In this document: one piece after another, positions 22,604 to 31,329 of the stretch
Layout of the letters: every line of letters begins with the position of its first letter
Numbering within the stretch: position 1 is the first letter of the stretch
NCBI GenBank assembly: GCA_001001185.1
Contig: LCKC01000007.1
Coordinates: 1 to 32,000, forward strand
Source of the DNA: Parcubacteria group bacterium GW2011_GWB1_45_10
Lineage (GTDB): Bacteria; Patescibacteriota; Minisyncoccia; UBA6257; Brennerbacteraceae
Direction of reading: 5' to 3'
DNA length: 32,000 nt
Notes under the pieces: generated by a model
What the model was told of the DNA's origin: nothing
What the model saw: the letters and a program-made list of their open reading frames with translations, nothing else
Databases searched by the model: none
Program-made: the position numbers and the translations under genes

Positions 22604-22687
22604 GCTGGGATGGCGGAGCGGTCAATCGCAAGAGACTGTAAATCTCTCGCCCTTTGGGCTACGCAGGTTCGAATCCTGCTCCCAGCA
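22604..22687 (+). tRNA. tRNA-Tyr (GUA), type II long variable arm, no encoded CCA
   Basis: Acceptor GCTGGGA/TCCCAGC, anticodon loop CTGTAAA, variable arm CGCCCTTTGGGCTAC, T-loop GGTTCGAATCC, discriminator A. Confidence 0.9.
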
Positions 22688-22734
22688 CTTTGACTCGTAG
22701 CTGGCGCGTTGCCAGTTTAACGTGAGCACCAGAC

Positions 22735-22809
22735 GGCCCTATCGTCTAGCCCGGTCTAGGACATCGCCCTCTCACGGCGAAAACACGGGTTCGAATCCCG
22801 TTGGGGCTA
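22735..22809 (+). tRNA. tRNA-Glu (CUC), no encoded CCA
   Basis: Closely parallels E. coli tRNA-Glu (CGTCTAG...GGACA.CGCCCT.TCACGGCG...GGGTTCGAATCCC). Anticodon loop CTCTCAC. Discriminator A. Confidence 0.85.
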
Positions 22810-22853
22810 CAAAAGAGGTTTTAAGGAAGATTATTTCCAGAACGAAATTTCTG

Positions 22854-22881
22854 TTGACAATAGAAGAATAGGTGGTATAAT
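22854..22881 (+). promoter_or_regulatory. Near-consensus sigma70 promoter TTGACA-N16-TGgTATAAT
   Basis: TTGACA at 22854-22859; TG at 22873-22874; TATAAT at 22876-22881. Confidence 0.75.
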
Positions 22882-22887
22882 ATGATA

Positions 22888-23250
22888 TACAACTGATATA
22901 AAACATTACCCCCTGCTCCGTCAGCTGACGGATATGGACTGGTAAAAGTGGAGTCACGATCCATGACGTTGAGGGCCAAAATGCCCTACGGAAGCTGAAC
23001 CGTAAAACACAGCAAGCGGTGTCGTCCTTCGGCAAGCTCAGGATAAATTATCCTTCGATGAACCCAGGATAAATTAAGTTTGTACGAAGACACGCGGAGC
23101 CGACCAGAGAGCCATAATCTTTAATAGGATTGTGGAATGAGGATGGGACCGCGGGAGGTCTCTTTTTTCTTGTGGTGAACGTAGTTGAACCATAACCTCT
23201 CGTTCCTTGCTTGCTACTTTTGTAGTAATTGAGGAACGGGAGGTTTTTTT
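22888..23250 (+). ncRNA. Candidate T-box-type riboswitch leader (T-box sequence, antiterminator, terminator); 5' half unassigned
   Basis: AGGATGGGACCGCG (23140-23153) against the T-box consensus AGGGUGGNACCGCG. Antiterminator A1 is 23140-23143/23204-23207, the bulge is TGGGACC, and A2 is 23151-23158/23196-23203. The competing terminator is 23196-23206/23233-23243 plus T7. See the first finding. Confidence 0.65.
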
Positions 23251-23322
23251 ATTTACCCCGAGCGTAGTCGAAGGGTTTCCCGTAAAGGAGGAGCGATGCT
23301 TAAGATTCATCGCGCTTTCGGA

Positions 23323-23348
23323 GGGTCTGGTCCTCACAGACCAGACCC
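23323..23348 (+). other. 10-bp perfect hairpin in the 5' leader of tRNA-His
   Basis: GGGTCTGGTC (23323-23332), loop CTCACA, GACCAGACCC (23339-23348), 6 nt before tRNA-His. Confidence 0.7.
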
Positions 23349-23354
23349 AGAAAT

Positions 23355-23427
23355 GGTCCCTGTAGCTCAATGGCAGAGCGATCGCCTGTGAAGCGATTGG
23401 TTGCGGGTTCAAATCCCGTCAGGGACC
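23355..23427 (+). tRNA. tRNA-His (GUG) with genome-encoded G-1 and C73 discriminator, no encoded CCA
   Basis: G-1 at 23355. Acceptor GTCCCTG/CAGGGAC, D-arm GCTCAATGGCAGAGC, anticodon loop CTGTGAA, T-loop GGTTCAAATCC, C at 23427. Confidence 0.9.
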
Positions 23428-23433
23428 CAAGGC

Positions 23434-23567
23434 GAATGCAAAGGTCATTTTTTGCCGCCAAACTTCCCAGCGAGAAGTTCGGCTGATATTGCTCCTTGCT
23501 CGCCCTCGGCAAGCTCGGGCACCATGCCCGCTCGTCGCAAAATCGCCCAAAAACGATCTTTGCATTC
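23434..23567. repeat. 134-nt long imperfect palindrome element, same architecture as the 13539-13722 element
   Basis: Basal arms GAATGCAAAGGTC (23434-23446) / GATCTTTGCATTC (23555-23567), 13 bp with one G-U, extended by a T5/A5 segment. Internal GC-rich hairpins. Shares the core CCT(T)GCTCGCC with the secY-adk element. Confidence 0.8.
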
Positions 23568-23764
23568 TTGCCGATAATACTTATTAAGAAGGTATGAGCT
23601 ACAAAAACAAAAAACTGAAAAAGAGCAGATTTAATCAACTCAAAAGGTCGATTGGGTTGATTAAGATTGCTCTTTTGAAAAAAGTCAAAATTCTTTTGAG
23701 AATTCAAAAGATAATTCTCCCTGTCTTTCTCCAACTAAGATTTATGCCAAGAAAGGAGGCACCA

Positions 23765-24553
23765 ATGTTAATTACAGAAAGGGTCACGGAATTGATTTTG
23801 AGGGTTGATCGTTTAGAGGGCAACCCCGACAGAAACAAGATTGGTGAAATAGTGGAAAGCCTGATAAGCCAAGAAGGCTTGGTGCGTTTTCTGGTTTTTG
23901 TCTGTCCCAAGTTTGATACCGCGGCTTTGCTTTCCGGGAAGCCTGAATACTATATGCCAATTAAGGCCGCGGCAGGAGATCTGTTTGAACCAAGAATCGC
24001 GAAACTCCTGGAGCTTAAAGATAAATTGATGAGGCTCGGGTTGCCAGCTGAGATTAATCTGGTCATTGGAGATAATGATGCAGAAGAGTATATTTTTCCG
24101 TTTCTGAAGGACCGGAATGTTGATTTGGAAAAACTAAAAAGCAGGCAAACGCTTTATCGTTTAAGCTTTGAGCGTCGAACCGAAAATGTCTCACTGGGTA
24201 AAGTGTGTGCTTGGAGTTTGGCAGAGGAGGGAATTGGTCTGGATCAAGCAGAGCCGAAAATCCCAGCTGATGCTTTTGACAAAGAGTTGTGTTTCTTCAG
24301 GCGGTTGTTTTCAAAGGCCGGACCCTACAGAGGAAAGTTGGAATTTACGGAAGAAGAGTTGAGAGAAATGGTGGTTCTGAAATACAGGCTTTATGGCGCT
24401 CAGGGAAAATTCTTGAAAGAGCTTAATGGGATTCTGTTGCAGACAGAAGGGCCTGGAGTTTGGTTGGAAAGGACACAAATGTTGAGGTGCACTGGTTCTG
24501 AAGCAGTTCCCGCCGTCTACCCATGGATTCGAAAAGAAGAGAAGATGGGTTGA
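23765..24553 (+). CDS. Hypothetical protein, 263 aa, no recognisable family
   Basis: The in-frame ATG at 23765 is preceded by AAAGGAGG (GGAGG at 23755-23759). The listed start at 23594 adds a low-complexity K/L/I-rich extension across AT-rich palindromic DNA. A strong terminator follows the stop. Confidence 0.7.
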   Translation: MLITERVTELILRVDRLEGNPDRNKIGEIVESLISQEGLVRFLVFVCPKFDTAALLSGKPEYYMPIKAAAGDLFEPRIAKLLELKDKLMRLGLPAEINLVIGDNDAEEYIFPFLKDRNVDLEKLKSRQTLYRLSFERRTENVSLGKVCAWSLAEEGIGLDQAEPKIPADAFDKELCFFRRLFSKAGPYRGKLEFTEEELREMVVLKYRLYGAQGKFLKELNGILLQTEGPGVWLERTQMLRCTGSEAVPAVYPWIRKEEKMG

Positions 24554-24678: not shown

Positions 24679-25000
24679 GAAAGAACTGATTTTGATTATA
24701 GCAAATTTCTCGGTTTTTTTCAGGCGCGAACCGGTTTTTGATGATATAATTTTTTAATCATGAATCCCGTTAGAAATTCAGCCATGAACCCCGTTAGAAA
24801 TATTCACGGTGAAAGAGTGTCAAATAGTTCTACCATGAAATTTTTAAACAATAACAAAATAAGCCATTTTTACAGAATTTCTAAGGGGGTGAACAAACGA
24901 ATCATTATTACTGAAGGCAAAGCCGCGTTTGACGCGGCGGAGCCGACTGTCGTCTTTGCGCTTGTGGATAAAGAATTAACTTTCTCAAATTTTTAACGGG

Positions 25001-25318
25001 ATGAAATATTTAATCGCGTTTCCTTTTTTGCTTAATTTTGCCGCCTGGGTTTTGATTTTGTTTTTTGTCCCGGCGGCGAATTTTCCCTTTATCGTCAAAT
25101 ACAATATTTTTGTCGGTAAAGATATTTTTGACACCAAGCTTTCGCTTTTGAGCCTGCCGGCGCTGGGGTTGATTATCGCGCTAATCAATGGTATATTGGC
25201 TTTATCCTTGAAAAAAACCAGCAAAGAGTTTTCTTTAATGATTTCCGGAATCACCTGTTTTTTTGAAGCGTTGATTGTTTTGTACGCTTGGATAGCGATT
25301 TTCATCAACACTTACTAA
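25001..25318 (+). CDS. Hypothetical small membrane protein (about 3 TM helices)
   Basis: 105 aa, three hydrophobic stretches. Directly upstream of rplU on the same strand. Confidence 0.55.
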   Translation: MKYLIAFPFLLNFAAWVLILFFVPAANFPFIVKYNIFVGKDIFDTKLSLLSLPALGLIIALINGILALSLKKTSKEFSLMISGITCFFEALIVLYAWIAIFINTY

Positions 25319-25341
25319 TAAACTGATCGCTAATTACTAAT

Positions 25342-25653
25342 ATGCAAGCTGTCGTAAAAATCAAAGGCCACCAGTATTTGGTTGGCGAAAAAAAGATTAT
25401 CAAGGTTTCAAAGCTTAAAGCCGAGCCCGGCGCCAAGTTTGATTTCCAAGATGTTTTGGCGGTTTTCAATGACAAAGAGTTCAAGCTCGGCGATCCGGTT
25501 CTGGCGAAAGCTTCGGTTGAAGCAAAAGTTTTGCGTCAGATCCGGGCAAGAAAACTTACGGTTTTTAAATACGGTCCAAAAACCAGACGGCGAGTCAAGC
25601 GCGGGTTCAGGCCGGAATACACACAGCTGGAGATTGAGAAAATCATTTCCTGA
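25342..25653 (+). CDS. rplU: 50S ribosomal protein L21
   Basis: 103 aa; MQAVVKIKGHQYLV...VFKYGPKTRRRVKRGFRPEYTQLEIEKI matches the L21 pattern. No rpmA follows. Confidence 0.9.
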   Translation: MQAVVKIKGHQYLVGEKKIIKVSKLKAEPGAKFDFQDVLAVFNDKEFKLGDPVLAKASVEAKVLRQIRARKLTVFKYGPKTRRRVKRGFRPEYTQLEIEKIIS

Positions 25654-25682
25654 AAAACCTCTGAAAAGAGGTTTTTCTTTTT
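25653..25682 (+). terminator. Rho-independent terminator after rplU
   Basis: AAAAACCTCT-GAAA-AGAGGTTTTT, then CTTTTT. Confidence 0.8.
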
Positions 25683-25694
25683 ATTGATGCCTGT

Positions 25695-25723
25695 TTGACG
25701 GGCAATTTTTTTCGTGGTTATAT
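25695..25723 (+). promoter_or_regulatory. Candidate promoter TTGACG-N17-TTATAT (TG-extended)
   Basis: TTGACG at 25695-25700; TGg at 25715-25717; TTATAT at 25718-25723; SD GGAGG at 25745-25749. Confidence 0.5.
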
Positions 25724-25754
25724 TTCTTTATCAAACAAAGAAAAGGAGGAAGAA

Positions 25755-26099
25755 ATGGCTGATTTTTCATTCAGCGTCATTGACAGGGTGATGGTGCCGC
25801 AGGAAAAAACTCTCGGTTTCAGGATTACTGACGTCCAAGAAAACAAAAACGTCAGCGGTCCGATAATCAGGTCTTGGACAGTTATCTGGGACAAACCTTT
25901 GATTTCTGATGGTGGAGGGGCGCTTAGTATTTACGCGAAAGCTGAAGAATTCTCCGCGGCATATGTCGCGCAGGAGTTTGGGGTGGATATTTCAAGACTT
26001 TGCGCTTCGGTTGTTCTCAGAACCAACGAGGTTAATGTTTTCATCCAGTCCATGGACTGGAAAGTTGATCCTGATGACGATTATCTGATGAAGGTTTAA
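25755..26099 (+). CDS. Hypothetical protein, 114 aa, no recognisable family
   Basis: The ATG at 25755 is preceded by AAAGGAGG. The listed ORF start at 25695 coincides with the candidate -35 box. Own promoter and terminator. Confidence 0.65.
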   Translation: MADFSFSVIDRVMVPQEKTLGFRITDVQENKNVSGPIIRSWTVIWDKPLISDGGGALSIYAKAEEFSAAYVAQEFGVDISRLCASVVLRTNEVNVFIQSMDWKVDPDDDYLMKV

Positions 26100-26116
26100 G
26101 GGGGTTAATAAACCAG

Positions 26117-26150
26117 AAAACGGACGGTAAAATACCGCCGTTTTTTGTTT
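26117..26150 (+). terminator. Rho-independent terminator
   Basis: AAAACGG(A)CGG / CCGCCGTTTT stem with one bulged A, then a T6 run. Confidence 0.7.
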
Positions 26151-26276
26151 GGAGTTTTGGATCTTGGATTTATTTAGCCTTCAACTTTGTTCAGGCTAAC
26201 CCCGAGCCTGTCGAAGAGTTAGAAATTATCTCGCTACGCGAGATCTGGCACAGCCAGAGATATTAGCAATCAGGAA

Positions 26277-26885
26277 TTACCGACGCGATTGAATCGCGTT
26301 GGCCAAGGTGTCTTCGTCGGCAAACTCAACTTCCGCGCCTCTTGGCAAACCCAGGCCCAAGCGGGTGATTTTCAAATGCTTGAACTGGTTGAAGATTTTT
26401 TCCAGCTCCATGGCAGTCAAGTCGCCTTCGGCCGTGTGGCTCAGGGCCAAAATGACTTCCCCCAGGTTTTTGTCGTTTTGAATCCGTTGACTCAGTTCTT
26501 TCAGTCTGATTTCGTGGCCGTTTCTGCCTGTCGATGAAAACAAGCCGCCAAGAACAAAATAAAGACCCGGATATTTTTTGGTTTTTTCGATTGAGATTAA
26601 GTCTGTTTCTTTTTCAACAACCGCCAGGGTTGTTTTGTCCCGGTTCGGATTCCGGCAAATTGAGCAGGTTGTTGGTTGTTCTTGTCCTGAGCTTGCCGAA
26701 GGATCAAAAACAAAAAAACACTGTTTGCAGACGGAAACCTTGTCAGCCAGATCTTTCAAAGCCATGGAAAAAGCGTAAACGTCTCTTTTCAAAAACCAAA
26801 ACGCCAGCCGGTGCGCTTGGCGCGGCCCGATTCCCGGCACTTTGGAAAACAGCTCAATGAATTTTGTCAGCGGTCTTGGAAGCAC
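26277..26885 (-). CDS. recR: Recombination protein RecR
   Basis: 202 aa with GTG start. HhH VPGIGPRQAHRLAF, a C4 zinc finger CKQC...CSIC, and a Toprim region VVEKETDLISIE. Confidence 0.9.
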   Translation of the reverse strand: MLPRPLTKFIELFSKVPGIGPRQAHRLAFWFLKRDVYAFSMALKDLADKVSVCKQCFFVFDPSASSGQEQPTTCSICRNPNRDKTTLAVVEKETDLISIEKTKKYPGLYFVLGGLFSSTGRNGHEIRLKELSQRIQNDKNLGEVILALSHTAEGDLTAMELEKIFNQFKHLKITRLGLGLPRGAEVEFADEDTLANAIQSRR

Positions 26886-26892
26886 GTGATTA

Positions 26893-26920
26893 AATTCTCA
26901 ATTCTAAATTTTGCAATTTT
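26893..26920 (-). repeat. Heptamer repeat (AATTCTC/AATTCTA/AATTTTG/CAATTTT; GAGAATT-type on the - strand) upstream of recR
   Basis: Read directly. AATTCTCAATT (26893-26903) is the reverse complement of AATTGAGAATT (27015-27025). Confidence 0.85.
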
Positions 26921-27008
26921 TGCCCCTTCGGGACATCTCTTATAGGGAGACAATCAATTCACAATTATTTAATTCTCAAACATTTGAACATTGTTTCATT
27001 GAAAATTC

Positions 27009-27040
27009 AATGAAAATTGAGAATTGGAAATTGAAAATTG
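27009..27040 (+). repeat. Heptamer tandem repeat GAAAATT/GAGAATT/GGAAATT/GAAAATT downstream of dnaB
   Basis: ATTG at 27016, 27023, 27030 and 27037 (period 7). Confidence 0.9.
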
Positions 27041-27042
27041 TC

Positions 27043-28446
27043 TTAAAACTCTTCGTTTTCAACCATGCCCAAACCCTGGCCTTCTTCCCTGGTCAGCTCC
27101 CTGAAGCTGGCGAACTGCTCGGAGAAATGGAAAGTCACTTTTCCGACTGGACCGTTTCTGTGTTTGGCAATAATCACGTCGGCAAGATTTTGCCGATCAG
27201 TTTCTTCTTTAATCTTGTCTTCACGGTAAATAAACATCACCACGTCAGCGTCTTGTTCAATTGAACCGGAATCCCTGAGATCGGAAAGGCGGGGGATTTG
27301 GTGGGTTCTTTGCTCAACCGCGCGGCTCAGCTGGGAAATCGCCAGAATCGGAATATTAAGCTCTCTGGCCAAGCCTTTTAAGCCGCGCGAGATTTCGGTC
27401 ATTTGCTGGACAAGGTTGTCGCTTTTGGTCGTTGGGTGAATCAGCTGCAGGTAATCAACCACCAAAAGACCGAGGTTTGATTCTGCCTGCAAACGCCTGG
27501 CCATGGCGCGGATCTGGATGACGGTCGGCATGGCAATGTCAACAATATAAATCGGCGCTTCGTCAAGCTTGGCCATGGCTTCTTGTAAAAGGTCAAAATC
27601 GCTTGGTTCGCCTTTTTCAGACAGGTTGCCGGTTCTGATTTTCCAGAGGTCAACATTGGCTTCGGCGGCGACCAGCCGGTCAATAATCTGGTCTTTGGAC
27701 ATCTCAACGCTGAAAATGCCGACAGGGATTTTTTCTCTGGTGGCGGCGTTTCTGGCAATGTCTAAAGCCAGCGAGCTTTTGCCGATTGACGGCCGGGCCG
27801 CCAGGATTATCAAATCAGATTTTTGCAGTCCGGAAAGAATGTTGTCCAAAGACTTGAAGCCGGTGGTGACGCCGCGGAGTTTGCCCCGGTGGTGGTGGAG
27901 CTCTTCAATCCTTTCAAAAGCTTTTTTCAGGTCTTCGGAAATGTGCTGGAATCCCGGTCCGGCGGTTCTCTGGGAGATGCGGAAAATTTCCTGTTCCGCT
28001 TCGTCCAGAACTTCTTCAACATCTCTTTTTTCTTCCTGGGCGAGTTCGGAGATGCTGTAAGACGCGTTAATCAAATCGCGCAAAATTCTTTTTTTGTTGA
28101 CGATTTTTCCGTAATGGTCAATGTGGCTTGAGGTCGGCACCAGGTTGACCAGCTCCGAAAGGTAACTGACGCCGCCGACTTCTTCAAGCTCATTTTTTTC
28201 TTTCAGGCGGCTTGAAACCGTTAAGATGTCAATCGGTTCGTTTCGGGAAAAAAGCTCAATCATCGCCCGGTAGATTTTTTGATGGCCCGGGCGGTAAAAA
28301 TCTTCCGGAATCAAAACATCGGCCACTTTGGCGAGCGAGTTTTTGTCAATCATCACCGCGCCGAGAACTGACTGTTCGGCCTCAAGGTCTTGCGGCGGCA
28401 GTCTGCCGGCAAGGTTTTGCGGGTCTTTGTGTTTGTCTTTTGGCAT
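27043..28446 (-). CDS. dnaB: Replicative DNA helicase DnaB
   Basis: 467 aa; LPPQDLEAEQSVLGA N-terminus, Walker A ARPSIGKSSLAL, VVDYLQL and RNGPVG motifs. Normal length, so no intein. Confidence 0.95.
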   Translation of the reverse strand: MPKDKHKDPQNLAGRLPPQDLEAEQSVLGAVMIDKNSLAKVADVLIPEDFYRPGHQKIYRAMIELFSRNEPIDILTVSSRLKEKNELEEVGGVSYLSELVNLVPTSSHIDHYGKIVNKKRILRDLINASYSISELAQEEKRDVEEVLDEAEQEIFRISQRTAGPGFQHISEDLKKAFERIEELHHHRGKLRGVTTGFKSLDNILSGLQKSDLIILAARPSIGKSSLALDIARNAATREKIPVGIFSVEMSKDQIIDRLVAAEANVDLWKIRTGNLSEKGEPSDFDLLQEAMAKLDEAPIYIVDIAMPTVIQIRAMARRLQAESNLGLLVVDYLQLIHPTTKSDNLVQQMTEISRGLKGLARELNIPILAISQLSRAVEQRTHQIPRLSDLRDSGSIEQDADVVMFIYREDKIKEETDRQNLADVIIAKHRNGPVGKVTFHFSEQFASFRELTREEGQGLGMVENEEF

Positions 28447-28540
28447 CCGGGTTTGTTTAAAGCAATCGGGATAATCTTAATTTAGCAGCACCGGGGGATG
28501 TTTTTCAATCAAAACTGTGAGTTACTTGTGAATAACTCAT

Positions 28541-28636
28541 CTCGCCGTAGCCAAATTTATTTGGACGAAGGCGGATTGATTTTCTGTTCATAACCTCGCC
28601 GTATCCGTCAGCTGACGGAAAAGGCGGGTGGTTTTT
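28541..28636 (+). repeat. Two tandem ~34-nt structured units CTCGCCGTA-[inner hairpin]-AAGGCGG
   Basis: Unit 1 is 28541-28574 (inner CCAAA/TTTGG). Unit 2 is 28595-28628 (inner CCGTC-AGCT-GACGG), followed by TGGTTTTT. 28602-28619 is an 18-nt exact reverse-complement copy of 22917-22934. Confidence 0.8.
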
Positions 28637-28752
28637 ACGCACAACCAATTATAATCTTGTTATAACTTTTTTGTTCACGGGTGTGTTGTTGTACTTGATT
28701 GTTGTTGATTTCTGTGGCACAATATCAATAATGGTAAGAGAAAGGAGGCACC

Positions 28753-28869
28753 ATGCGGCCGTCAACAGAATTTTGGCGGGAGGTAACTTGGGCTATTGTT
28801 TTTTTAGCCCTGATTGTGATCCTAGATCGCGCCGGTGATTTCCTGATAAGGATTTATCTCGGCGTTTGA
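28753..28869 (+). CDS. Small hydrophobic peptide, 38 aa, single TM helix (below the ORF-track cutoff)
   Basis: The ATG at 28753 is preceded by GAAAGGAGGCACC, the same 14-mer context as the 23765 start. Translation: MRPSTEFWREVTWAIVFLALIVILDRAGDFLIRIYLGV. A terminator hairpin follows. Confidence 0.5.
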   Translation: MRPSTEFWREVTWAIVFLALIVILDRAGDFLIRIYLGV

Positions 28870-28874
28870 TCACA

Positions 28875-28907
28875 AAAGGATTTTGCTTATTGCAAAGTCC
28901 TTTTTTT
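28875..28907. terminator. Hairpin terminator between convergent genes, overlapping the last codons of cysS
   Basis: AAAGGATTTTGC (28875-28886) / GCAAAGTCCTTT (28892-28903), 12 bp with one G-U. The T-run continues to 28907 on the + strand. Confidence 0.65.
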
Positions 28908-30347
28908 ATATACTTTTTGGCCTTGGCTTGAGTCCTGAATCTCAAATCCCAAAGACTCGATTTTTTTCCTGAACTCGTCTGATTTAGCGAAGTTTTTTTC
29001 TTTCCTGGCTTTTTCTCTTTGTTCAAGCAGGAGCTTGATGTTTTCAGGAACGTTTTTCAGCTCTTGTTTTGGCGCGATTTCGTCAAGTTTCAAGCCGAGC
29101 ACCCGGTCAAAATCAAGAAGCAAAGATTTTTTTTCGTCGTCTGAAAACCGGTTGTCTTTAAGGACTTTCCAGGCGATTGCCAAAGCTTTTGGCAGGTTGA
29201 AGTCTTCGGCAAGGGCTTTGCCAAACTCTGTTTTTTCTTTTTCACTGCCTTCGGATTTGGTTTTTTGGGGCTTTGTCGGGGCTTTCAGGTTGGCGATTTT
29301 TTCTCTCATTTCTTGCAAGCCCGCTTGTGCGTTTTTTAAAGCTTCCCAGGTGAAGTTTTGTTTTGAACGGTAATGCGCCGTCAGAAAAAAATAGCGCAAA
29401 GACATTGGCTCAAAGCCTTTGTCAACAACCTCCTGAAGGCTGTAGGCGGTGCCTTCGGACTTTGCCATTTTTTTGTTCTCAACTAAAAGATGTTCGTTGT
29501 GCAGCCAGTAGTTGACGAATTTTTTGCCGTTGGTTGCTTCTGACTGGGTAATCTCATTGGTGTGGTGGATTGGAATATGCTCAATGCCGCCCATATGAAG
29601 GTCAAGCGTTTCGCCGAGCAAAGCTTTTGACATGGCCGAGCATTCAATATGCCAGCCGGGAAAGCCGATGCCTGATTCAACCTGCTTTGAATGAAAAGGC
29701 GAAGGCCAGGTCTGCAAAGCGTTTTTGTGAACGCCGGTTTTGAAAAACCAAAGGGCAAAGTCTGCCGGGTTTTTCTTTTGCGGGTCGGAGATCTCGCCTT
29801 TGCCGGCGTCTTTGATGATTTTTTCCAGTTTTTGCTTTGAGAGTTTTGTGTAGTCCGGAAACTTTTCCACCTCAAAATAAACCGCCAGGTCAGTTTCATA
29901 AGCAAAACCTTTGTCAATCAGGGTTTTGACCATGGCTATCATCTGTTTGACGTACTGCGTTGCCCTTGGCTTAAAATCAGGCTCAAGCAGGTTGATGGCT
30001 TTGGTGTCAGCCTCAAACTGGTCAATGTATTTTTGAGCAATGGCGTCTGGAGACAAACCTTCTCTTTTGGCGCCTTTTTCCATTCTGTCTTCACCCTGAT
30101 CTGCCAGACCAATCGTGTCTCCAGTTAAGTGACCGACGTCAGTGTAGTTTCTGACGTGGTTTGTTTCAAATCCGAAATACTTGAAAGTTCGCACAATCAA
30201 ATCCCCCATGGTCAGTCCGCGGAGATTGCCAATATGCTGGGTCCAATAGACAGTCGGGCCGCAATGATAAAAACGCAGCTTGTTCGGTTCAAGCGGAGCA
30301 AACTCTTCAACTTTTTTTGAAAGCGTGTTGTAAAGCCTAATATTCAT
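28887..30347 (-). CDS. cysS: Cysteinyl-tRNA synthetase
   Basis: 486 aa; FYHCGPTVYWTQHIGN (HIGH-type motif) and KMAKS (KMSKS) class I signatures typical of CysRS. Confidence 0.92.
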   Translation of the reverse strand: MNIRLYNTLSKKVEEFAPLEPNKLRFYHCGPTVYWTQHIGNLRGLTMGDLIVRTFKYFGFETNHVRNYTDVGHLTGDTIGLADQGEDRMEKGAKREGLSPDAIAQKYIDQFEADTKAINLLEPDFKPRATQYVKQMIAMVKTLIDKGFAYETDLAVYFEVEKFPDYTKLSKQKLEKIIKDAGKGEISDPQKKNPADFALWFFKTGVHKNALQTWPSPFHSKQVESGIGFPGWHIECSAMSKALLGETLDLHMGGIEHIPIHHTNEITQSEATNGKKFVNYWLHNEHLLVENKKMAKSEGTAYSLQEVVDKGFEPMSLRYFFLTAHYRSKQNFTWEALKNAQAGLQEMREKIANLKAPTKPQKTKSEGSEKEKTEFGKALAEDFNLPKALAIAWKVLKDNRFSDDEKKSLLLDFDRVLGLKLDEIAPKQELKNVPENIKLLLEQREKARKEKNFAKSDEFRKKIESLGFEIQDSSQGQKVYKKRTLQ

Positions 30348-30363
30348 TTTTACGGAAAACTGA

Positions 30364-31278
30364 TTAAATCCACCTTTTTCTTTTCAAAAACCAGTAAAGC
30401 AGTCCGCAGGCTAAACCCATGAATCCCAGAACTATCCACCAGTCGCCTGGCTGGCCGATGACCGGCGTGAACTGGGTGTTGATTTGGAATAAAGTGCCGA
30501 TGATGGTGACCGGCGCCAGAAAAAACGCCAGCCAGGAAAGAATCTTTGTCACTTCGTCAAGCTTGGTTGAAAGCATTGAGCTGTTGGTCGTTTCCAGGCT
30601 TTCCAGAGTGTCTTTCTGGTTTTCCACCCAGTCAATCGCGTCCATGTAGTTTTCCAGAATTCTTTTGAAATGGAAAGATTTGTTGCCGGAATAAACAGCG
30701 CCTTGCTCTTCAGCCAGGTCTTTCAGGGCGCCGTGGACCGGCTTCATGATTCTTCTGAAATCAAGCACGTCCCGTTTGGTCTGCGAGATCTGCCTGATCA
30801 TTTCTTTTTCCTTGTTTTTGAAGATGCCCTCAGAGATTTGGTTGATTTTTTTGTCGATATGCGCCAGCTCGCGATTGGCGTAATTGAAAAGCTCTTCAAA
30901 AATAATTTCCAAAGCTTCAGCCGAGGTTTTACCCAAAACTTTGCTCCGGAAGCCTTCCAGGTTTTCGGTTTTCTTAAAAAGGTCGTCAAGCGGCTCGCAG
31001 CTGGAGTATCTGATGGTCGCCAGGGCGTTTTCTTTGATTAAAAAATCAATCTCAATCGGCATTGAGGTTTTTTTGGACTGGTTGTAAACCGGGAAGCGGA
31101 TGACCAGAAAAATAAAATCATTGAATTTTTCCAGTTTTTGCCTTGAAAGCTGGATTTTAATCTCTTCTTCAAGGGCGGGCGAAACGTCAAAGAACTGTTT
31201 CAGCTCTTTTAAGTCCGGTTCTTTCGGATGGTTAATGTCAAGCCAGGTGGTCTTGTCTTTTATTGTGCGCATAGCCAA
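30364..31278 (-). CDS. CorA-like divalent-cation transporter family protein with a non-canonical pore motif
   Basis: 304 aa; soluble N-domain plus two C-terminal TM helices. The loop motif reads LFQINTQF where CorA proteins have (Y/F)GMNF. Confidence 0.7.
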   Translation of the reverse strand: MAMRTIKDKTTWLDINHPKEPDLKELKQFFDVSPALEEEIKIQLSRQKLEKFNDFIFLVIRFPVYNQSKKTSMPIEIDFLIKENALATIRYSSCEPLDDLFKKTENLEGFRSKVLGKTSAEALEIIFEELFNYANRELAHIDKKINQISEGIFKNKEKEMIRQISQTKRDVLDFRRIMKPVHGALKDLAEEQGAVYSGNKSFHFKRILENYMDAIDWVENQKDTLESLETTNSSMLSTKLDEVTKILSWLAFFLAPVTIIGTLFQINTQFTPVIGQPGDWWIVLGFMGLACGLLYWFLKRKRWI

Positions 31279-31329
31279 ATTTAGCTAATAACTAATATTA
31301 TAGTACGGCGGGGTTGTTTAGGGAATACG

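Follow-up and report, generated by a model that had tools for sequence, protein, structure and literature searches.

A predicted histidine-specific T-box riboswitch with an ultrashort Stem I upstream of tRNA-His in a Patescibacterial genome

Introduction

Can the gene of a tRNA stand under the control of a riboswitch which has that same tRNA as its ligand? The question is raised by a leader of ~360 nt upstream of a tRNA-His gene on contig LCKC01000007.1 (assembly GCA_001001185.1) of Parcubacteria group bacterium GW2011_GWB1_45_10, an ultrasmall bacterium of the Candidate Phyla Radiation (CPR)/Patescibacteria. The whole stretch analyzed (positions 1 to 32,000 of the contig; 32,000 nt) is referred to here as the window, and the loci of related leaders and proteins are designated L001, L017 and so on. 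In Gram-positive bacteria T-boxes are a textbook case of riboswitches, and they control genes for aminoacyl-tRNA synthetases (aaRSs), biosynthesis and transport. A preliminary description of the window had read the leader as a T-box placed before its own tRNA-His, and this central reading is upheld by covariation and by significant matches to the Rfam T-box family RF00230 in relatives which carry a GAA-CAC-A/G loop. The transcript at 22888-23250 is very probably a histidine-specific transcription-attenuating T-box riboswitch, as judged from the sequence of the window and its relatives. Since the window on its own fails in Rfam, the case for a T-box rests on comparative evidence.

The T-box leader and its expression platform

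The leader is preceded by a sigma-70-type promoter (TTGACA-N16-TG-TATAAT, 22854-22881, plus strand) with a predicted start at ~22888. It had been described as near-consensus and was found to match the consensus at 12 of 12 positions, with a TG-extended -10 element; it is kept at the equivalent relative site in homologous leaders. In agreement with the claim of a non-coding stretch of ~360 nt, a scan for open reading frames (ORFs) identified none of 30 aa or more on the plus strand within 22880-23206. The region thus delimited consists of ~360 nt of structured RNA (folding z = -4.6) bracketed by a strong promoter and a strong terminator, and all of the motifs listed in the preliminary description were present in it when checked against the sequence.

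The T-box 14-mer AGGATGGGACCGCG (also written AGGAUGGGACCGCG) is located at 23140-23153. When both strands of the window were searched with the T-box consensus AGGGTGGNACCGCG, allowing at most one mismatch, this was the sole match, with 0.02 expected by chance from shuffled sequence. The antiterminator (23140-23207, plus strand) comprises helix A1, the T-box bulge, helix A2 and the A2 loop, and all of its parts could be drawn as originally proposed. Helix A1 is formed by AGGA (23140-23143) with TCCT (23204-23207), the bulge is UGGGACC (23144-23150; 7 nt, of the UGGN-ACC type) and helix A2 is formed by GCGGGAGG (23151-23158) with CCTCTCGT (23196-23203), ending in a wobble pair between G23151 and U23203. 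The A2 loop is 37 nt in length and contains a hairpin of its own. Upstream of the antiterminator lies the 5' part of the discriminator (23107-23137, plus strand), made up of RRRxG (GAGAG, 23107-23111), Stem III (23112-23119 with 23128-23135) and AA (23136-23137). The RRRxG-Stem III-AA motif together with the terminal G-U wobble of A2 is the signature of the T-box discriminator (PMC7583486). This signature was found in the window, and among the 13 non-redundant leaders compared below RRRxG...AA is present in all and the terminal G-U in 12.

The intrinsic terminator (23194-23250, plus strand) has 24-nt arms at 23194-23217 and 23222-23245, a 4-nt loop and a U7 run at 23244-23250, and its hairpin folds at -32.9 kcal/mol; here too the features first drawn were recovered at their positions. 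Its 5' arm overlaps the 3' strands of A2 and A1, the strand common to both structures being 23196-23207, and the sequence CGGGAGG, previously noted as duplicated, does occur at both 23152 and 23237. The whole fold with the terminator has a predicted energy of -62.1 kcal/mol compared with -43.2 kcal/mol for the forced antiterminator, a difference of ~19 kcal/mol in favor of the terminator, as would be expected for a switch which needs tRNA to hold the antiterminator. That the two structures are mutually exclusive had been proposed from the window, and the pair was found to covary across the 13 homologous leaders.

The small hairpin reported within this region, GGGACC/GGUCUC followed by U6 (23145-23168, plus strand; hairpin 23145-23162), is also present and folds at -8.4 kcal/mol, and it is the first listed of the terminator-like sites in a scan of the window. 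It would sequester the T-box bulge. By inspection, a comparable small hairpin followed by U5-U9 is found in 8 of 14 leaders. From its sequence it may be a pause site or an early terminator which would be pre-empted by the bound 3' end of the tRNA. With a 5' arm that does not vary and a 3' arm that shares positions with A2, neither covariation nor conservation can prove such a role.

Related leaders and covariation

Homologues of the protein encoded downstream of the leader were used to fetch 48 loci. Neighboring genes vary between these loci, yet a long non-coding leader and a tRNA-His(GTG) are retained upstream of the protein gene. The tRNA-His(GTG) stands directly upstream of it in ~20 loci with enough upstream sequence, even where protein identity falls to 31-37%, and is itself preceded by a non-coding leader of 250-700 nt. 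The motif TGGNACCRCG was found at the equivalent relative position in at least 15 distinct loci, and a T-box motif in every homologous leader examined.

The related leaders matched RF00230 with 31.7-67.8 bits (E 1e-5 to 1e-14). The highest score was obtained for L001 (67.8 bits, E 1e-14), which has a textbook specifier loop GAA-CAC-A, with lower scores for L013 (46.6 bits), L017 (35 bits) and L041 (31.7 bits, E 1.4e-5). An nhmmer profile built from six other leaders, with the window excluded, matched the window at 23092-23250 (E 1.3e-21) and at 22967-23032 (E 3.3e-11), and these two matches split exactly at a 67-nt repeat insertion. Taken together, the profile matches and the RF00230 scores of the relatives indicate that the leader of the window is homologous to bona fide His T-boxes.

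Such homology bears on the suggestion that the region is a stand-alone small RNA gene, or a riboswitch of another class, which carries a T-box-like 14-mer by chance. The strong promoter and terminator around a structured RNA would suit such a gene, as would the lack of any Rfam family reaching its gathering score in the region. However, the region is collinear with leaders which give significant T-box matches, and its covariation fits the alternative structures of a T-box. A permissive Rfam scan of the window returned noise and a weak T-box match, no other family scoring meaningfully. When RNase P, transfer-messenger RNA (tmRNA), 6S RNA and signal recognition particle (SRP) RNA were sought with Rfam throughout the 32-kb window, only three tRNAs reached the gathering score, and ARAGORN detected no tmRNA. 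A chance 14-mer in an unrelated RNA is therefore considered extremely unlikely.

For the pair counts, 13 non-redundant leaders were cut into segments of fixed length anchored on sequence motifs, those for A1, A2 and the terminator being anchored on sequence only. Across Stem III, A1 and A2, 97.4% of cells were paired, a fraction which is inflated as the arms of Stem III were chosen by eye for pairing, compared with 47-57% when the partners were slid; double changes were seen in 9 of the 15 pairs, and values as high as those observed were reached in none of 500 shuffles. Helix A1 is 100% paired and three of its four pairs show compensatory changes (AGGA/UCCU, AGAA/UUCU, GAGA/UCUC and AAGA/UCUU). 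The outer pairs of Stem III covary throughout (5/5), and in the terminator pairing reaches 97.6% over a 13-bp core, five pairs of which covary. Stem II, IIA and IIB could be counted in nine leaders, where their 13 pairs are 100% paired and seven of them covary. The check for covariation across homologous loci which had been recommended thus supports A1, Stem III and the terminator in 13 leaders, and Stem II with IIA/B in nine, by direct pair counts. Covariation backs every helix except Stem I and A2.

Stem I and the specifier codon

Two 5' architectures were found in the family. In eleven leaders Stem I is long, with its specifier in a GAA-CAC-A/G loop and with a distal region of the GGUGAAAG type (L001, L003, L013, L014, L019/L034, L023, L027, L037, L042 and L044), and in four it is short (the window, L017, L041 and L038). 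In the window the Stem I region (22927-22970, plus strand) contains an ultrashort hairpin, GUGGA (22948-22952) with UCCAU (22960-22964), closing a 7-nt loop GUCACGA (22953-22959). A base helix of GACG (22927-22930) with CGUU (22967-22970) is proposed below it, drawn by eye, and helices drawn in the same way in relatives are AGCGU/ACGUU (L017) and GCGC/GCGC (L041). The hairpin itself reads GUGGA-GUCACGA-UCCAC in L041, GGGA-GUCACGA-UCCC in L017 and GUACC-AGUCACGC-GGUAC in L038, the most divergent of the short-Stem-I leaders, which was compared by eye; its stem shows compensatory changes among the four sequences. The preliminary description had been unable to fold a convincing Stem I, which is explained by its being this short (a 5-bp hairpin).

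The terminal loop of this hairpin displays CAC (His) at 22955-22957 (plus strand), within UCACG (22954-22958), which is complementary to positions 33-37 (UGUGA) of tRNA-His. No other single-stranded CAC is shared by 4/4 short-Stem-I leaders, and a CAC is kept in all leaders, either in the terminal loop (4) or in a GAA-CAC-R internal loop (11). On this comparison of sequences, the specifier is CAC 22955-22957 in the loop of the ultrashort Stem I.

Stem II follows at 22972-22987 (plus strand) as a hairpin of AGGGC/GCCCU with the loop CAAAAU, with covariation at all five pairs and complete pairing (100% of cells) among the nine leaders. The Stem IIA/B pseudoknot occupies 22988-23013 (plus strand), with IIA formed by ACGG (22988-22991) and CCGU (23000-23003), and IIB by GCUG (22994-22997) and CAGC (23010-23013). 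The variable pair of IIB, which is G-C in the window, takes four Watson-Crick types in seven sequences.

A different specifier had originally been put forward, namely CACA at 23008-23011. The sequence is present, but it overlaps the covarying 3' strand of IIB (C23010-C23013) and is not the specifier; relatives have AAAAGC, CGAGC or AUAGC in its place. For CACA to be read by the tRNA, it would have to lie in a larger, unrecognized Stem I to which the GUCACGA hairpin is unrelated. In its favor, this CAC has a purine after it, and its distance from the T-box downstream, ~130 nt, is a conventional one. Nevertheless, C23010-C23013 pair with G22994-G22997, and the corresponding bases of relatives (AAGC, GAGC and UAGC) covary with the IIA loop. 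The bases preceding the IIB strand are AAA, UCG and AUA in relatives rather than CA, and the site is downstream of both Stem II and IIA, whereas the specifier of the full-length relatives is upstream of both. This placement of the codon is thus regarded as very unlikely, and the loop CAC is retained as the specifier.

Proposed mechanism

It is from the arrangement of these elements that we infer the binding of tRNA, the sensing of its charging state, read-through and the part played by the small hairpin. The consensus promoter would fire into the leader, and the ultrashort Stem I would present CAC (22955-22957) in its 7-nt loop and, together with Stem II and IIA/B, capture the GUG anticodon of tRNA-His. 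The discriminator ~180 nt downstream (RRRxG, Stem III, AA, A1, UGGGACC and A2) would then test the 3' end of the bound tRNA. An uncharged ...CCCA-3' end would pair with UGGG and stabilize the antiterminator, allowing RNA polymerase to read through. A charged tRNA would be unable to do so, in which case the strand 23196-23207 would join the terminator and transcription would stop at U7 (23244-23250). Read-through is predicted to express a mini-ORF, the tRNA-His gene and a conserved protein linked to tRNA-His.

Integrity of the leader

Several observations weigh against reading the leader as a working T-box. In the Rfam test proposed for the window, RF00230 gave 12-13 bits (E ~1.4), far below its gathering score of 93, and none of the related leaders reaches that score either. 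The long Stem I with its elbow-binding platform is not present, its place being taken by a 5-bp hairpin, and transcriptional T-boxes generally need a long Stem I with such a platform (PMC7583486). The short Stem I is backed by four sequences only, with its base helix and K-turn drawn by eye, to which may be added the choice of the Stem III arms by eye mentioned above. A 67-nt insertion in the linker and the 37-nt A2 loop could impair function. Lastly, there is no obvious use in inducing the gene of a tRNA when that tRNA is uncharged.

The low score of the window can be attributed to the missing upper Stem I, the linker insertion and the long A2 loop. In the alignments, cmscan matched only 9 nt of the window with the 69 of Stem I in the RF00230 model, and the scan fitted the antiterminator of the model onto the small local hairpin instead of onto the real A2. 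The insertion (23025-23091, plus strand) consists of two 26-nt tandem units carrying the dispersed repeat CTTCGGCAAGCTCAGG and was not found in any other leader. Both it and the A2 loop fall in regions which are of variable length elsewhere, and neither interrupts a defined functional element.

These same features could point to the decaying relic of a functional His T-box, one which, after two repeat insertions and with its upper Stem I lost, has become a constitutive terminator or a leaky leader without tRNA sensing. Such decay would account for the linker insertion, the long A2 loop, the score of just 12-13 bits and the absence of a Stem I platform which has been reported as important for transcriptional T-boxes (PMC7583486). 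However, all functionally defined elements are intact (the CAC loop, IIA/B, RRRxG-Stem III-AA, the bulge, the G-U wobble, A1, A2 and the terminator), the insertions are confined to two freely varying regions, and the consensus promoter is kept. Furthermore, the short Stem I is found also in the L017, L041 and L038 lineages, where the linker insertion is absent, and the architecture is therefore a maintained one. Decay is therefore judged improbable, and the leader is best regarded as a functional T-box candidate.

Sister loci with a putative leader peptide

Eight loci were found to have the mini-ORF/tRNA-His/protein arrangement without a T-box, giving no RF00230 match at E ≤ 1 (L004 3551-3631, L012 1672-, L046 1133-, L010 2598-, L011 2320-, L018 2650-, L021 1418- and L009 282-). 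In these loci the place of the riboswitch is taken by a promoter, a short ORF whose His codons are in tandem or alternate (HH, HSHH, HGHH or NHNHN), and hairpins like those of attenuators, with a terminator at the end. Examples of the encoded peptides are MNKFGKKFNHHEGNL, ...QNHSHHMPQFAVGYFVM... and ...VHHINLF. From their sequences, these leaders look like leader-peptide attenuators which replace the riboswitch. The input would be the same as that of the enterobacterial his leader hisL, the availability of charged tRNA-His, read out through alternative hairpins and a terminator. However, the sister loci have two to three His codons and not the seven of the hisL type, and this mechanism is not the one used in the window. 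The occurrence of two unrelated sensors of tRNA-His charging before the same operon lends independent support both to the His assignment and to a response to charging.

Comparison with known T-boxes

The leader of the window shares with canonical transcriptional T-boxes (RF00230; the Bacillus tyrS, glyQS and hisS leaders) the 14-nt T-box, the UGGN-ACC bulge and the opposition of A1/A2 to a terminator, along with RRRxG-Stem III-AA, the G-U wobble, Stem II with IIA/B and a specifier read by codon-anticodon pairing. The full-length relatives (L001, L013 and others) resemble them also in that Stem I is long and has GAA-CAC-R as its specifier loop. In contrast, the window, L017, L041 and L038 are without the upper Stem I and elbow-binding platform. 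The system further differs from canonical T-boxes in having a Patescibacterium as host, a cognate tRNA and an uncharacterized protein as its genes, and scores below the Rfam gathering threshold.

A closer likeness is seen to the ultrashort-Stem-I (US) T-boxes of actinobacterial ileS, in which Stem I is a short helix whose terminal loop holds the specifier, the platform is absent, and Stem II and IIA/B are kept (bioRxiv 10.1101/2023.02.28.530422). As this class is also without a platform, the elbow platform is not universal among T-boxes. The window shares the terminal-loop specifier, the lack of an elbow platform and the retention of Stem II and IIA/B. US T-boxes have been described as translational, acting through a sequestrator of the Shine-Dalgarno (SD) sequence, and all concern ileS and tRNA-Ile (bioRxiv 10.1101/2023.02.28.530422). 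The window differs in its intrinsic terminator, its CAC specifier for tRNA-His, its phylum and its genes. Given that US T-boxes have been described as translational and for ileS only, and that transcriptional T-boxes are held to need a long Stem I, a terminator-coupled His T-box with an ultrashort Stem I would constitute a new variant.

As regards a tRNA pool outside translation, the Staphylococcus aureus glyS T-box is reported to respond to both proteinogenic and non-proteinogenic tRNA-Gly (PMC4574755). It would serve as a precedent, should the downstream enzyme use tRNA-His off the ribosome; it controls a synthetase gene and not, as in the window, a tRNA gene. No description of T-boxes in CPR/Patescibacteria, or of one preceding its cognate tRNA gene, was found in the literature searched, which is not proof of novelty.

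If the interpretation is correct, the family would extend T-boxes to the ultrasmall CPR/Patescibacteria and indicate that a transcription terminator and another amino-acid specificity are both compatible with an ultrashort Stem I. A riboswitch acting on the gene of its own tRNA ligand would form a feedback loop on the tRNA pool. The switch would also hint at a role of a widely conserved protein in tRNA-His metabolism, in view of its predicted induction when tRNA-His is uncharged and of the leader peptide in sister lineages.

The predicted regulated unit

Between the T-box terminator, or the His attenuator, and tRNA-His sits a mini-ORF. In the window it encodes MLKIHRAFGGSGPH... (23284-23391, plus strand), with an SD sequence AAAGGAGG and an ATG at 23296; it overlaps a hairpin at 23323-23348 and extends into the tRNA gene, and across loci the mini-ORF often does likewise, running into the tRNA gene and overlapping a hairpin. 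The motif HR(S/A)FGGxG(P/S)H was identified in 13 loci including the window (the 13th, L021, by eye), with synonymous codon differences. Positions in relatives are L001 3875-, L003 3714-, L004 3710-, L010 2752-, L012 1855-, L023 1694-, L027 1683-, L044 1415- and L046 1325-. The mini-ORF may provide a second His sensor, based on the ribosome, or it may modulate how the tRNA is processed.

The tRNA-His gene (anticodon GTG; 23356-23428, plus strand; 72 bits in Rfam) has an encoded G-1 at 23355 and C73, the latter as previously stated. It had been argued that the UGGG of the bulge predicts C73, and this holds for the tRNA-His of the window; it is not a strict rule, since two relatives have UGGA with C73. 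The tRNA is both the predicted ligand and a product of the switch. In the window, a promoter scan of the interval from terminator to tRNA-His revealed no promoter-like site, and in L041 and L017 tRNA-His begins at most ~25 nt after the U-run of the terminator, so that tRNA-His is most simply made by read-through.

In most relatives the ATG of the protein gene is located 1-4 nt past C73 of tRNA-His, and an ATG so close after the discriminator base of the tRNA suggests a nearly leaderless mRNA made by 3' processing of the tRNA. The window instead has a 165-nt insertion between tRNA-His and the protein gene (23429-23593, plus strand), resembling a miniature inverted-repeat transposable element (MITE), with 24-nt inverted arms at 23434-23457 and 23544-23567 and a repeat core at 23504-23519. 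The core is one of four copies in the window of the dispersed 16-mer CYTCGGCAAGCTCRGG (23027-23042, 23504-23519, and on the minus strand 26201-26216 and 26686-26701), for which 0.07 would be expected; another copy is inside the T-box linker insertion. The genes downstream were correctly described as not being of the aaRS, biosynthesis or transport kind. The term orphan protein was less apt, as the protein belongs to a conserved family which travels with tRNA-His, and the regulated unit is for this reason an operon and not a tRNA alone.

Two features of the tRNA-His region were observed in other lineages. In one lineage tRNA-His has the unusual T-loop UGCAAGU, in which G55 takes the place of a U that is nearly universal, and its D-loop lacks the GG pair; the two may represent a co-varied elbow (L001 3928-4000, L003 3788-3860, L023 1788-1860, L027 1737-1809, L044 1504-1577, L046 1426-1498, L022 and L025). 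Unlike this lineage, the tRNA-His of the window is canonical. An insert of 120-180 nt follows tRNA-His in L003 (3861-3999), L023 (1861-), L042 (1319-1500) and L037 (1800-1920). It contains GGGGTCGCGA...TGTGACC and ends in a copy of the tRNA 3' end, resembling what an integrative element targeting tRNAs would leave behind as a scar. The tRNA-His gene of L037 is itself disrupted by the insert. L047 has a partial T-box leader and tRNA-His (86-200 and 290-370), and the mini-ORF which separates this tRNA from the protein gene is a different one, MADWLQSWLKMHGHWLHGVWG, rich in His and Trp.

The downstream protein

The conserved Patescibacterial protein of the operon is 319 aa in length (23594-24553, plus strand) and begins with a Lys-rich N-terminal helix (residues 12-49). 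A second SD sequence and Met at 23766 would give a short form of 262 aa, ahead of which is a weak promoter-like site (23675-23703, 9/12). The long form begins with MSYKxKKLKKS... (23594-23765 in the window; L001 4001-, L004 3869-, L044 1580- and L046 1502-). Eighty-three homologues were identified, all unannotated, and those with a named source all belong to the Patescibacteria (Parcubacteria, WWE3, Yanofskybacteria, Woesebacteria and others); a search from the L017 protein returned only three proteins. A profile search of 1.8 billion representatives gave 122 relatives, many of which have extra N-terminal regions. No match for the protein was detected in Pfam or NCBIfam at E ≤ 0.1 or in a sequence profile search of the PDB, and none in Pfam for ten remote homologues tested.

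The homologue alignment shows no variation at C104-P105, which follow the first strand, at G159-D160-N161, or in LLQTE and YPWIR, and no HIGH or KMSKS motif was seen by inspection. Two AlphaFold models were obtained (pLDDT 88.5 and 92.8). For both, the top PDB matches by Foldseek were the catalytic domain of tyrosyl-tRNA synthetase (TyrRS), PvcA and cyclodipeptide synthases (CDPSs), with E of 5e-6 to 1e-3 and a probability of ~1.0, at a TM-score of only 0.35-0.50 and an rmsd of 6-10 Å. TyrRS, CDPSs and PvcA share a TyrRS-like Rossmann fold with each other, and aaRSs and CDPSs bind the acceptor ends of tRNAs. On the basis of the models, the predicted fold is distantly TyrRS/CDPS/PvcA-like and would resemble that of a class I aaRS. 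The protein differs from class Ic aaRSs and CDPSs in having no sequence-family match, and in having C-P after strand 1, GDND, LLQTE and YPWIR instead of HIGH/KMSKS.

The link of the protein to tRNA-His, through genomic linkage and regulation, is solid. That linkage is widespread without being universal, as three WWE3-type homologues (L015 2481-3061, L016 308-888 and L035 1481-2061), which have a short 5' untranslated region (UTR) and a divergent upstream gene, are found with neither T-box nor tRNA-His. It is tentatively suggested, as one possibility among others, that the T-box and the His leader peptide mark this 260-320-aa protein of TyrRS/CDPS-like fold as an unrecognized enzyme dedicated to tRNA-His, and that the tRNA-His gene is under closed-loop control by its own uncharged product. 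Were this so, the enzyme might make or repair His-tRNA-His in a non-canonical manner, or be a transferase which draws on His-tRNA-His, and the closed loop might be refined by the translated mini-ORF (HRSFGGxGPH) upstream of the tRNA.

Surrounding genes

The leader had been described as flanked by tRNA genes, and indeed tRNA-Tyr (22604-22688), tRNA-Glu (22735-22810) and tRNA-His surround it. Although the window also contains the synthetase gene cysS, no T-box motif was found ahead of it. The genes at 1-22600 and 24980-31300 are typical of a streamlined CPR genome, among them fusA, tuf, ribosomal-protein operons, secY, pgk, rpsB and tsf, followed by rplU, recR, dnaB, cysS and corA.

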